From Escherichia coli (lineage in GTDB: Bacteria > Pseudomonadota > Gammaproteobacteria > Enterobacterales > Enterobacteriaceae), in NCBI RefSeq assembly GCF_050920415.1, contig NZ_CP169309.1: a DNA stretch of 64,000 nucleotides, one strand, 5' to 3'. The notes beneath the pieces are model-generated. The model was not told the DNA's origin. It saw only the letters and a list, made by a program, of their open reading frames with translations, and searched no databases. Of this stretch, positions 53,221-55,982 are shown in pieces (the stretch's first letter is position 1; each line of letters starts with the position of its first letter). The position numbers and the translations under genes are program-made.

Positions 53221-53772
53221 TCATCGCAAAACATCCTCCGCGCTTATCAGTTCGTTCCGCTTCAGGTAGTCCATCGCCTTCTCCGGTAATTTGCAGTCTG
53301 GATTAGCTTTTTTCAGTTGACTGACCAGTCGTTTAACCCACATTGTTAATTCGCCAACTTGGTTACTGGATGCTAATGGATTGTCGGCTTTACCCAGAAT
53401 GACAGCACAGCAGGCCTCTTTGAGTACCCAATCAACAGCATCTTTCCATGCTCCTGTTTCGACTGGTGGATTCTCACGCTTTACCTGTTCATAAAAGCGC
53501 ACTGCTTTAACCAGTCCTTCAGGTGCTGCGAGCGCTGGCGGCACAGCGTAGAGTTGTATCCACTTTGGCGCTTTATCTCCAGCCGAATGCTGATACCAGC
53601 CGCCCGGCTTATACTCATAAAATTCACCAACAGGCTCCGCTTCCAGCGATGCCAGTGCAATTTTGAATAACTCACCCTCTACCCGTGCCATCTCTGAATT
53701 AGGGTGGCATTTCGCAATCGCTATTTTTAATTTAGCTTCTTCGATTAATTGCTCTTTTGTTAATTCAGTCAT
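53221..53772 (-). CDS. Hypothetical phage protein
   Basis: 183-aa ORF, no family recognised. Confidence 0.5.
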   Translation of the reverse strand: MTELTKEQLIEEAKLKIAIAKCHPNSEMARVEGELFKIALASLEAEPVGEFYEYKPGGWYQHSAGDKAPKWIQLYAVPPALAAPEGLVKAVRFYEQVKRENPPVETGAWKDAVDWVLKEACCAVILGKADNPLASSNQVGELTMWVKRLVSQLKKANPDCKLPEKAMDYLKRNELISAEDVLR

Positions 53773-53867
53773 TTTTCATTACTGCCCTTTCAGGCGGCCT
53801 CCTGATGTTCTGAGGGTACAGAAATCCCTCCGGTTAAGGATTAAATTTTTAACAGTGCTAAATTTAA

Positions 53868-54257
53868 TTATTCAGTTCTGGATTTTGTCACCCTGCGTAT
53901 CCGCGCTTTCACGTTACGCTCAATCTGAATTAGCTTTTCTATATTTTTCCGCCTTTCCTGTTCCTCCTGGCGCAATAGTCTTACATCATCTGCCAGTCTG
54001 GTTTCTCTTTTCGCCACAGAGAGCATCCAGTCAAATAGATCCACAACTGCACCGCAGATTTTACAGCGGACCTGACGCTCTTTTTCGTCAACCCGGACAG
54101 AGGCGTGATGACAATATGGTCTTTCCGATGGCTCATAAAGAAAATTAACCTGATTACGTGGGTCATCCTCTTTTACCGGAAATAAAACAATATTACTTAA
54201 CTCATCTTCTGGTTTTATTTCCACGTTAGTCTCCTTTAATACGAATCCCTGCAACAC
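53868..54257 (-). CDS. Hypothetical protein with Cys/His cluster
   Basis: 129 aa; CHH...CKIC then coiled-coil basic tail. Confidence 0.45.
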   Translation of the reverse strand: MLQGFVLKETNVEIKPEDELSNIVLFPVKEDDPRNQVNFLYEPSERPYCHHASVRVDEKERQVRCKICGAVVDLFDWMLSVAKRETRLADDVRLLRQEEQERRKNIEKLIQIERNVKARIRRVTKSRTE

Positions 54258-54687
54258 GTAGTGAGTGCTCTAAGTCAGTCCGATGAATCCAGTTGCCATT
54301 TTCTTTAGGTATCATCACATGTCGCTCATCAGCATTTATCGGATGTCCATATCGAAGGTCGAAGCCAGCAGGTAACTGGATTTCCCTCGCCTCCAGTTCT
54401 GCAATGCGCTTGTCTTTAGCTTCCAGCTTATCCAGTATCGCCAGCGCAACCTTTGGATTAAAGGCAGCAATAAATTCAGCGTTTGCGTAAGCCTGAGCAT
54501 CTGTTTCAACCAGGCAGTTAACATGACATTCTGCAATCACGCCACCGGGTTCTCCTTTCCATTTTTGACAAACAAAAACTCCTGTTAAATTGCCATTCTG
54601 GTTAACAGACGTATGCCCTACGATGTAGCTTCCTTTAGTTGCTTTCTCTGCCGCCTCTCGCAGTGCCTGACAGTTAATTTCGCTCAC
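54226..54687 (-). CDS. Hypothetical phage protein
   Basis: 153 aa; translationally coupled with neighbours. Confidence 0.5.
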   Translation of the reverse strand: MSEINCQALREAAEKATKGSYIVGHTSVNQNGNLTGVFVCQKWKGEPGGVIAECHVNCLVETDAQAYANAEFIAAFNPKVALAILDKLEAKDKRIAELEAREIQLPAGFDLRYGHPINADERHVMIPKENGNWIHRTDLEHSLRVAGIRIKGD

Positions 54688-54907
54688 TGTTTACCTCCTG
54701 CAACGCTACCCGGTACGCCTTCTTTATCCACGCTGTACTGCCATATAACTTCGTCTTCATAAAAAACACACCTGCACGGCTCGCCGATATCCCCGGACAG
54801 GCTAACAGCACTGCATCCACCACACGGTTATGCTTCCGGAACTCCATTACAGTACTGCTGATAACCACCTGCCCCACCGGGCCGTAATCCTGATACAGGA
54901 TTTTCAC
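54674..54907 (-). CDS. Hypothetical small protein
   Basis: 77-aa ORF coupled to neighbours. Confidence 0.4.
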   Translation of the reverse strand: MKILYQDYGPVGQVVISSTVMEFRKHNRVVDAVLLACPGISASRAGVFFMKTKLYGSTAWIKKAYRVALQEVNSERN

Positions 54908-55305
54908 GCAGACACCCTCCTGTCGAAATAAACGTAGTTATTCACTGTGCGCAACGGCATTCCAAATTTTCTGGCGATTTCTCTCCTGGACACGCCACGC
55001 TGATGCAGTTGTCGCGCCAGCTCAATATCACTCTGCGGATATTTTGCTGACTGGTGAAAATCACCACGCAGAATCAGACTTATTCCCATCTCCCGGGCTT
55101 TCGTCCTGACCGCCGCCTCACTACGGCCAATCAGACTGCCGATGCTTTTTACCTTCATTGTTCCCGCGCACTGCCGAAGAATAAGGATTTCAGCCCGCCC
55201 CCAGCCACGCCATCTCACTTCACATCCTCTCTGGAACAATTCATCTGCCGTATAATATCCCGGTACTTGTTCAGCTCCCGCAGCGCGGCGCAGACACGCT
55301 CCCAC
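54904..55305 (-). CDS. Putative DNA-binding protein with two HTH-like segments
   Basis: C-terminal ...[21 protein letters not shown]; start may be the internal ATG at 55158. Confidence 0.5.
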
Positions 55306-55982
55306 TTCTGGACATGGCTTTTCGCCCGACGCAATTCGCGGTTTGCTATATGCAGCGATGGTAAAATCAGGTCATCCCCTTGCGTTTCGGTGAGCGATGG
55401 TAACGACTGCACCATGTCCGCCACAGTTTCTGTTTTAATATCTTCCTGTGTTGCAGCTTCCTGTACCGGTAACGCAACACCGGCTGGCTGAGGAAAGGCT
55501 TTGCCATCGGTTTCCGCTACGGCTACGGATGCAGCTTCCGGCTCTGCCGGTAAATCAGCGCCCGGTATGCAGTAACGAAATTTACCGTTCTGGTTTACGC
55601 GTGCCAGCCGCCCCGTGGCGGTTACTACCGCCAGCGTGGAAGCAACCTTGCGAGTGCTGACACCGAACTTACCCGCCAGTTCCTCACACGTTTTAGCCCC
55701 CTCCTGACCGATAAACTCAATCATCATGTCAGCGGTAACTTTTTGTCCGACCACCCCGGTCAGCACATCCGGTACTTCAGATTGTGCTGGCTGCTCTTCG
55801 GTTACCCCGGATTCACCTTCACCAGCCAGAAACCAGGTGCGACCCGTTTTATCAACAACACCATTTCTTTTCAGTTCCCACAGCTCGTTCAGCATTTCTT
55901 CGCGACTGATATCAAGTCGCGCAGCCAGCTCTGCCGACGTGGCTTTCCCCATTGCTTTCAGTGCGTCAAAAACAGTCTCCAT
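55215..55982 (-). CDS. Winged-helix DNA-binding phage protein (DUF1627-like)
   Basis: Start at [13 protein letters not shown] with RBS GGGAGG; N-terminal MarR-like wHTH. Confidence 0.55.

Follow-up and report, generated by a model that had tools for sequence, protein, structure and literature searches.

The question raised by this locus is whether six small open reading frames (ORFs), lying behind the replication genes of an Escherichia coli prophage, make up one system that has so far escaped description. The prophage is contained in a window of 64,000 nucleotides (nt) of contig NZ_CP169309.1 (assembly GCF_050920415.1). A preliminary description of this sequence had placed six ORFs between a toxin-antitoxin cluster and the P gene, at the position of ren and nin in lambda, and had considered this position a hotspot of accessory cargo and the most plausible site in the window for an undescribed system. 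All six ORFs are present, on the minus strand, between P and a cluster of hok/sok, phd-doc and higBA-like genes. We consider it likely that they represent the variable accessory tail of the early operon transcribed from pR, composed of independently recombining small cassettes, and not one system. Gene structure, family membership, the folds of A and E, mosaicism, and synteny of the block were established as described below. The ORFs are designated A to F in the order in which they follow P, and are listed together with the spacer between E and F and a very short ORF past F, mini27 (aa, amino acids).

55215-55982, minus strand: ORF A, 255 aa, DUF1627/YdaW-family protein (PF07789, phrog_630)
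54904-55218, minus strand: ORF B, small helix-turn-helix (HTH) protein, 104 aa from GTG 55218 or 84 aa from the alternative ATG 55158 (phrog_323, HTH_23)
54674-54907, minus strand: ORF C, 77 aa, no recognisable domain (phrog_1001)
54226-54687, minus strand: ORF D, 153 aa, Ead/Ea22-like protein (PF13935)
53868-54224, minus strand: ORF E, 118 aa, putative CxH...CxxC zinc ribbon and long helix (phrog_1621)
53773-53867, minus strand: spacer of 95 nt between E and F, break in translational coupling
53221-53772, minus strand: ORF F, 183 aa, modular, no recognisable domain (phrog_660)
53141-53224, minus strand: mini27, ORF of 27 codons whose ATG overlaps the stop codon of F (ATGA), closing the cassette array

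Independent assortment of the six genes

Composition of the block was followed in 80 related loci from IMG/VR (L002-L081) located around DUF1627 homologues, onto which all proteins of the window were mapped. The 59 loci which reach a downstream anchor, either hok or the DUF968 gene, are referred to as anchored loci. All six genes occur together in a single anchored locus. ORF B was found in 19 of the 59 and ORF C in five, each time with B, while a D-type gene is present in 12 (just one of them at ≥ 80% identity), E in 21, and full-length F in three. Occurrence in 5426 complete E. coli genomes was determined by megablast, and these counts depend on identity thresholds: 2769 genomes contain A-like DNA, 777 contain B+C, 1027 contain pieces of D (full-length in three), 1678 contain E, and 758 contain pieces of F (near-full-length, with 81% coverage, in one). 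Of the complete E. coli genomes, about half have DUF1627/YdaW and about a third have the putative zinc-ribbon protein E. Pieces of the 3.1-kb block as a whole were detected in 3427 genomes, with coverage of at least 80% in only one, CFSAN004176 (94% identity), where the position of F is occupied by a 129-aa allele 56% identical to F. Co-inheritance, by which a multi-gene system can be defined, is not observed for this block.

In related loci, between 1204 and 5100 nt separate the DUF1627 gene from hok, and the occupants of this interval differ, which bears out the proposal of an accessory-cargo hotspot. In place of B-C-D, other loci carry a DUF977/“LygF”-like winged-helix gene, DUF4406, DUF551, a S-adenosylmethionine (SAM) methyltransferase or DUF7167. 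The label “LygF” was considered for the ORFs of the block and rejected, because it refers to the DUF977-like gene, which other phages carry instead of B-C.

Compared at the sequence level, D and F are themselves recombinant mosaics. The C-terminal module of D (about residues 84-153) is distinct and was found on other N-termini, as well as alone in loci L005, L026 and L035. ORF F is built of three exchangeable pieces (about residues 1-59, 74-127 and 132-183), each of them found separately in related loci. In addition, the early-left arm of the Shiga toxin (Stx) 2a phage ArgO145 (L084, 1.5-11.3 kb) contains, among exo-xis-type genes, an E cassette 97% identical to the one studied here, accompanied by two Ead/Ea22-like genes with the N-terminus of D, by the C-terminal module of F, and by mini27. 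The cassettes are therefore exchanged between early-left and early-right operons. The same arm also holds a 125-aa DUF1627 fragment.

If the block is a tail of separate cassettes, its genes would be repressed, and so silent, in the lysogen, and on infection or induction read-through from pR past O and P would transcribe them. Each product may then act alone, as a nucleic-acid-binding or oligomeric adaptor tuning early development, with replication hand-over, lysis-lysogeny balance, host takeover, and counter-defence as candidate roles. The six products are predicted to be small, non-enzymatic proteins, and single-acting early regulators or adaptors are the most likely reading of them. We liken this mode of action to that of the pro-lysogenic Ea22 of lambda and phi24B; for YdaW of the Rac prophage it is hinted at.

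Several points weigh against this reading. Selection of the 80 loci by closeness to the query ORF A also brought in near-duplicates, and counts derived from them are not independent samples. All 12 loci with a D-type gene have E as the next gene, and all five with C also have B, so that some two-gene units may be functional pairs and not merely linked DNA. Furthermore, there are isolates of E. coli in which exactly these six genes recur in the same arrangement. NCBI holds E. coli entries identical to each of the six ORFs, four of them in the consecutive accession run EET4844778 to EET4844783, and the exact sequence of A is found on 17 contigs; the arrangement is therefore stable over short periods. 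That the genes are silent in the lysogen and transcribed by read-through from pR we infer from gene order. Finally, families to which no function is assigned could hide defence or anti-defence activity outside current profile libraries.

The regular order of D and E can also be explained if the two genes constitute a functional cassette, which is transferred as one piece between the pL and pR operons and in which the C-terminal module of D works with E. Junctions of 1-4 nt between the two genes, presence of E next to the C-terminal module of D in L005, L026 and L035, and the Ead/Ea22-like gene directly ahead of E in the other operon of ArgO145 agree with this proposal. However, in nine of the 21 loci with E there is no D-type gene, and E is located behind a DUF977-like or some other gene. 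Only a remnant of about 50 nt of the D 3' end is kept in these loci, in another frame, a pattern that looks like a typical recombination junction and not like a partnership of proteins. Genomes with E (1678) also outnumber those with any piece of D (1027). We hold a functional D-E cassette to be unlikely.

It is, in our opinion, very improbable that the block is one anti-phage defence system, so far undescribed, carried as prophage cargo. Such a system would fit a variable site adjoining three toxin-antitoxin modules, and a set of genes none of which has an experimentally known function. The genes are, however, not co-inherited, and the neighbouring toxin-antitoxin genes are separate units, the higBA-like pair being on the opposite strand. 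Search of the six ORFs against PADLOC-DB v2 gave overlaps of winged helix-turn-helix (wHTH) domains with CARF/Csa3 models (E 1e-5 to 0.02), which are no better than wHTH noise and include no effector domains, and a match of the MTase_II model over the helix of E (E 0.0012). No enzymatic, NTPase, nuclease or membrane-effector domain was revealed by Pfam and Foldseek searches, and no NCBIfam model scored above its cut-off with any of the six. Sequence searches of PDB with A, D, E and F returned only noise (designed TIM barrels, and wHTH/Z-alpha chains at E 0.05-0.9), and the literature on Ea22 and anti-defence and on lambdoid hotspots yielded nothing on genes of the block. Signals of an autonomous promoter are also lacking, the genes being coupled into an early operon that would be repressed: one weak promoter-like site was found in the block against 5.8 expected by chance in the scanned 6-kb region, and promoter- and terminator-like sites together showed no excess there but were fewer than chance predicts. 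The lack of effector-like domains and of co-inheritance, together with the embedding in a repressed early operon, makes defence by the whole block unlikely.

The proposal of an undescribed system is therefore not sustained, given the independent assortment (one of 59 loci, one of 5426 genomes), the mosaic nature of D and F, their catalogued families, and the lack of a PADLOC match better than wHTH noise. Profile and fold searches, which the preliminary description had put forward as one way to check it, place all ORFs in standard phage accessory families and reveal no defence domain, although these families are of unknown function. Translational coupling and a “hotspot” position are no evidence that neighbouring genes work together. 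The block appears as routine “dark matter” of Stx prophages, showing no sign of a coherent new system.

Gene boundaries and protein families

Lengths originally given for A (255 aa), C (77 aa), D (153 aa) and F (183 aa) were confirmed, whereas 129 aa for E and 133 aa for B are probably too long. For E, a start at GTG 54224 (118 aa) is more likely than at GTG 54257 (129 aa), because it is positioned 6 nt past AAGGAG and 1 nt past the stop codon of D, and because 118 aa is the length of its homologue in RefSeq as well as of the identical entry in NCBI. The 133-aa form of B, beginning with GTG 55305, is unlikely; it would overlap A by 91 nt and is not present in a collection of 15 billion proteins. 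Forms of B on record comprise 104 aa (GTG 55218, in a GTGA overlap with the stop codon of A) and 84 aa (ATG 55158, as chosen by the Prokaryotic Genome Annotation Pipeline, PGAP).

Translational coupling had been suggested for the entire block, and it is confirmed for the junctions from A to E. They consist of GTGA overlaps at A/B (if the 104-aa start of B is used) and B/C, a 14-nt overlap at C/D, and a 1-nt gap at D/E. E and F, on the contrary, are not coupled, because they are separated by 95 nt. The gap between P and A is 34 nt. Spacing of about 99 nt between E and F is repeated in related loci. In the E-F spacer, RNA folding is no better than in shuffled controls (z = -0.72), the scan disclosed no promoter- or terminator-like site, and there is no match in Rfam. 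ORF A has a GC content of 0.55, and the value declines to 0.42 by ORF E.

Over-extension of two ORFs in the preliminary description might indicate that some of the six are not genes but arose by chance in prophage DNA that is non-coding or decaying. This explanation can hardly be entertained. All six have full-length homologues at the protein level, Shine-Dalgarno (SD)-like sequences lie ahead of the start codons of A, B (GTG 55218), D and E, and conservation of both E and A extends across genera or deep clusters; even mini27 accumulates substitutions with a third-position bias.

The former statement that none of the ORFs matched a nameable family has to be revised. ORF A belongs to PF07789 and D to PF13935, and all six can be assigned to PHROG families, with E values from 8e-26 to 1.5e-127. 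Families and exact sequences are already catalogued, and since sequences, families and arrangement are all in public databases, the block must be regarded as known, as far as sequence goes. Two HTH or winged-helix proteins and one protein with a Cys/His cluster had been reported, and they correspond to A (two wHTH domains), B, and E, respectively.

ORF B matches phrog_323 (E 8e-26) and, weakly, HTH_23 (E 7.8e-4), and both its 104- and 84-aa forms are named “DNA-binding protein” in NCBI. ORF C matches phrog_1001 (E 1.7e-37) and gives no match in Pfam; its exact sequence is present as “hypothetical protein” on 284 contigs. In ORF D, residues 2-103 match positions 1-95 of 139 in the Ead_Ea22 family PF13935 (E 4.9e-24), in agreement with the NCBI name of the exact sequence, “ead/Ea22-like family protein”. 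No PDB chain was matched by D in the sequence search at E ≤ 1, including the solved C-terminal domain (CTD) of lambda Ea22.

ORF E, named “hypothetical protein” in NCBI (exact sequence), matches phrog_1621 (E 4e-53). Its family is confined to Enterobacterales, with homologues across that order. The alignment of homologues shows conservation of the motif C38-x-H40 ... C54-x2-C57, the residues of which are putative metal ligands, and a nearly invariant basic helix, RRxNIEKLIQIERNAKARIRR. In the AlphaFold2 model, a disordered N-terminus is followed by a beta-hairpin ribbon (about residues 38-61) and a helix of 55 residues (63-117), the latter with a predicted local distance difference test score (pLDDT) above 90. 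The long helix probably oligomerises. Similarity to the TFIIB zinc ribbon PF08271 is below significance in Pfam (E 0.0026), and Foldseek superimposes the model on the N-terminal ribbon of TFIIB over 27 columns with a root-mean-square deviation of 1.9 Å (probability 0.94, E 0.17), without any other resemblance. ORF E is also unusually uniform. It is full-length in all 1678 genomes in which it was counted, and 1680 of 1700 records have 95-99% nucleotide identity, while flanking genes vary freely.

ORF F matches phrog_660 (E 6e-74), with partial matches to eight other PHROGs, and has no match in Pfam. Its exact sequence is a “hypothetical protein” in NCBI, and its relatives number 2159; among the 120 listed, lengths range from 102 to 217 aa and none has a functional name. 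Directly past F, mini27 codes for the peptide MTWPEAFTTVGIAMAVALVVYSICRWG, a single hydrophobic helix. It is intact in 33 of the 59 anchored loci, in most cases behind an F-type C-terminal module, and phages ArgO145 and vB_EcoS-666R9 carry it with 100% identity. Substitutions in mini27 are distributed as 28/22/78 over codon positions 1/2/3 and indels are in-frame, indicating that it is under selection. It is unannotated in the RefSeq homologue and was missing from the ORFs initially described.

Between mini27 and sok there is a 293-nt spacer, which is rare, being complete in two and partial in one of the 80 related loci. It accommodates a small hydrophobic ORF (52890-53045, minus strand, ...VLVLKCALAIAAVMAIYCLVIVLMNHLSD) with a GGGAGG-5 nt-GTG start, which might code for a further small peptide of toxin-like character. 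Just downstream of mini27, a terminator-like hairpin with a T-run was observed (53110-53130, plus strand); it faces the early operon. RNA folding in the region past F disclosed no structure beyond that in shuffled controls.

The DUF1627 gene and the replication module

Residues 91-247 of ORF A match PF07789 over its full length (positions 1-155 of 155, E 8.5e-92), the entire protein matches phrog_630 (E 1.5e-127), and the exact sequence is named “DUF1627 domain-containing protein” in NCBI. Homologues form 180 clusters at 50% identity. The AlphaFold2 model, built on 38 diverse homologues, predicts a first wHTH domain (residues 1-55), a disordered linker, a second wHTH domain (84-140), a disordered acidic linker, and a C-terminal helix (210-252). 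Overall pLDDT is 79, rising to 94-97 in both wHTH domains, and the C-terminal helix is also confident. Foldseek search against PDB gave no match at E ≤ 1e-3 and only generic wHTH or tandem winged-helix folds (ScpB, SelB, ESCRT-II, Z-alpha, MarR, Csa3).

The DUF1627 gene is distinguished by its position. In 74 of 74 loci with enough upstream sequence it starts 22-40 nt past a helicase-loader gene, which is of lambda-P type in 49 and of DnaC/YdaV type (79% identical to YdaV of K-12) in 25 of them. The same order of loader and DUF1627 genes is present in Rac (ydaV-ydaW) and in phage vB_EcoS-666R9. The link to the loader slot thus holds across two unrelated loader families, and A is the only positionally fixed gene among the six. 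Because it always lies directly past the helicase-loader gene, it probably acts in connection with the replication module.

Location of A in the slot of ren brings up the explanation that one or more genes of the block, A above all, act early in infection as counter-defence against abortive-infection (Abi) toxins of the host or against exclusion. Like ren past P in lambda, A lies directly past the loader gene, and it shows a weak profile match to the Ren-like phrog_142 (whole-protein E 5.6e-7, with no single stretch passing alone). BLASTP comparison with lambda Ren, however, gave no alignment, hhalign reached a probability of 32% over 58 columns of one winged helix, and the fold matches of A are generic. 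Further support comes from ydaW of K-12, whose product shares 62% identity with the two winged helices of A. In an overexpression screen, ydaW was recovered, as were dicC and racC, as a blocker of RcaT, the toxin of retron-Sen2 (10.1101/2020.06.22.160242). This is a single overexpression result, and since DNA-binding repressors such as dicC were recovered as well, an indirect effect through expression is plausible; moreover, YdaW of K-12 does not have the C-terminal part of A. Taken together, we regard counter-defence as rather improbable.

A broader version of the same idea would see DUF1627/YdaW as a replication-linked counter-defence factor of thousands of E. coli prophages, directed against Abi toxins (RcaT) or Ren-like in its action, with the cassettes behind it (Ead/Ea22-like, E, and mini27) as an exchangeable anti-defence repertoire. 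It seems quite doubtful to us. A link between the block and Pas small RNAs (sRNAs) was considered and rejected: in the sole paper that gives a genomic context for DUF1627, PasA and PasC flank esterase-holin-lysozyme genes and not the block.

Several of the families represented here are very abundant, have no assigned function, and are located in the early operon of toxin-converting phages. Studies of single genes could therefore bear on induction of Stx phages, on lysogeny, or on counter-defence.

Prophage setting and comparison with known systems

The prophage carried by the window is, by its gene content, lambdoid and Stx2-converting. A 319-aa ORF (46245-47204) is identified as stxA, with the Stx2g A-subunit model as its best match, and because its score of 747 bits is above the curated cut-off of 736, the prophage is classed as toxin-converting. 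Three tRNAs upstream of stxA and the STnc100 sRNA downstream of it were observed at 45697-47540. Rfam scan of the window detected only sok, STnc100, and the three tRNAs. Genes ahead of the block are as follows.

58322-58729, plus strand: DicA-type repressor, part of an immunity region of DicA/DicC type
58018-58245, minus strand: DicC-like Cro gene, part of the same immunity region
between the Cro-like gene and O, minus strand: YdaT-like ORF
56471-57586, minus strand: O-type initiator with a DnaT-like domain, 371 aa, assigned by profile matches
56017-56682, minus strand: P-type helicase loader, 221 aa as listed, assigned by profile matches

On the minus strand, the order starting from the immunity region is therefore DicC-like Cro, YdaT-like ORF, O, P, A-B-C-D-E, the gap, F, and mini27. 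Past the block follow hok/sok, phd-doc, the higBA-like pair on the opposite strand, the DUF968 gene, RusA, and then a 236-aa ORF, which occupies the slot annotated as antiterminator Q in a related RefSeq prophage.

As listed, the O-type and P-type ORFs share 212 nt (56471-56682) in different frames. The homologous P in RefSeq has 153 aa, yet residues 20-220 of the long form are covered by the alignment with the PHROG P-like profile. A weak terminator-like hairpin, composed of a 5-bp stem and a T-run, is located on the minus strand (56026-56042), inside P at its 3' end and shortly ahead of ORF A. It might be a tR2-like candidate, although such sites are fewer in the region than expected by chance.

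Three toxin-antitoxin modules are arranged in tandem at 50898-52847, in the order higBA-like (plus strand), phd-doc, and hok/sok. Among the anchored loci, hok is near-universal (49 of 59) and phd-doc is present in three, which makes the interval from hok to DUF968 a second site of variable cargo.

Among named systems, the closest to ORF A is YdaW of the K-12 Rac prophage, with which it shares PF07789, the slot directly past the helicase loader, and 62% identity over residues 1-154 (BLASTP, E 1e-64). YdaW has 186 aa and aligns with A up to residue 154, but without the acidic linker and the conserved C-terminal helix of A.

ORF D shares the N-terminal and central signature of lambda Ea22 and P22 Ead. 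Ea22 of lambda and of P27/phi24B is a mosaic, pro-lysogenic protein that assembles into a coiled-coil tetramer and has a variable CTD, and the CTDs of its variants are unrelated to one another (PMC10834534, PMC7093339). Like Ea22 variants of Stx phages, D is a mosaic with an exchangeable C-terminal domain, while its own C-terminal module does not match the solved lambda Ea22 CTD in sequence. The two also differ in location, ea22 of lambda being in the exo-xis (early-left) region and ORF D in the early-right operon past O and P.

ORF E resembles the zinc ribbon of TFIIB only loosely, through a predicted beta-hairpin with its conserved CxH...CxxC motif. It differs in one putative ligand, which is His and not Cys, and in the invariant basic helix of 55 residues, for which there is no counterpart in TFIIB.

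For the block as a whole, the comparison is with the ren/nin segment of lambda. In the lambda map, ren, which provides escape from Rex exclusion, lies directly past P, and the nin region consists of non-essential, variable small genes. None of the six ORFs matches a Nin family (NinA-NinH) in PHROGs, Pfam or NCBIfam. What the block has in common with ren/nin is its position between the replication genes and the genes of the RusA/Q region, its content of variable small genes, and the location of A at the site of ren.

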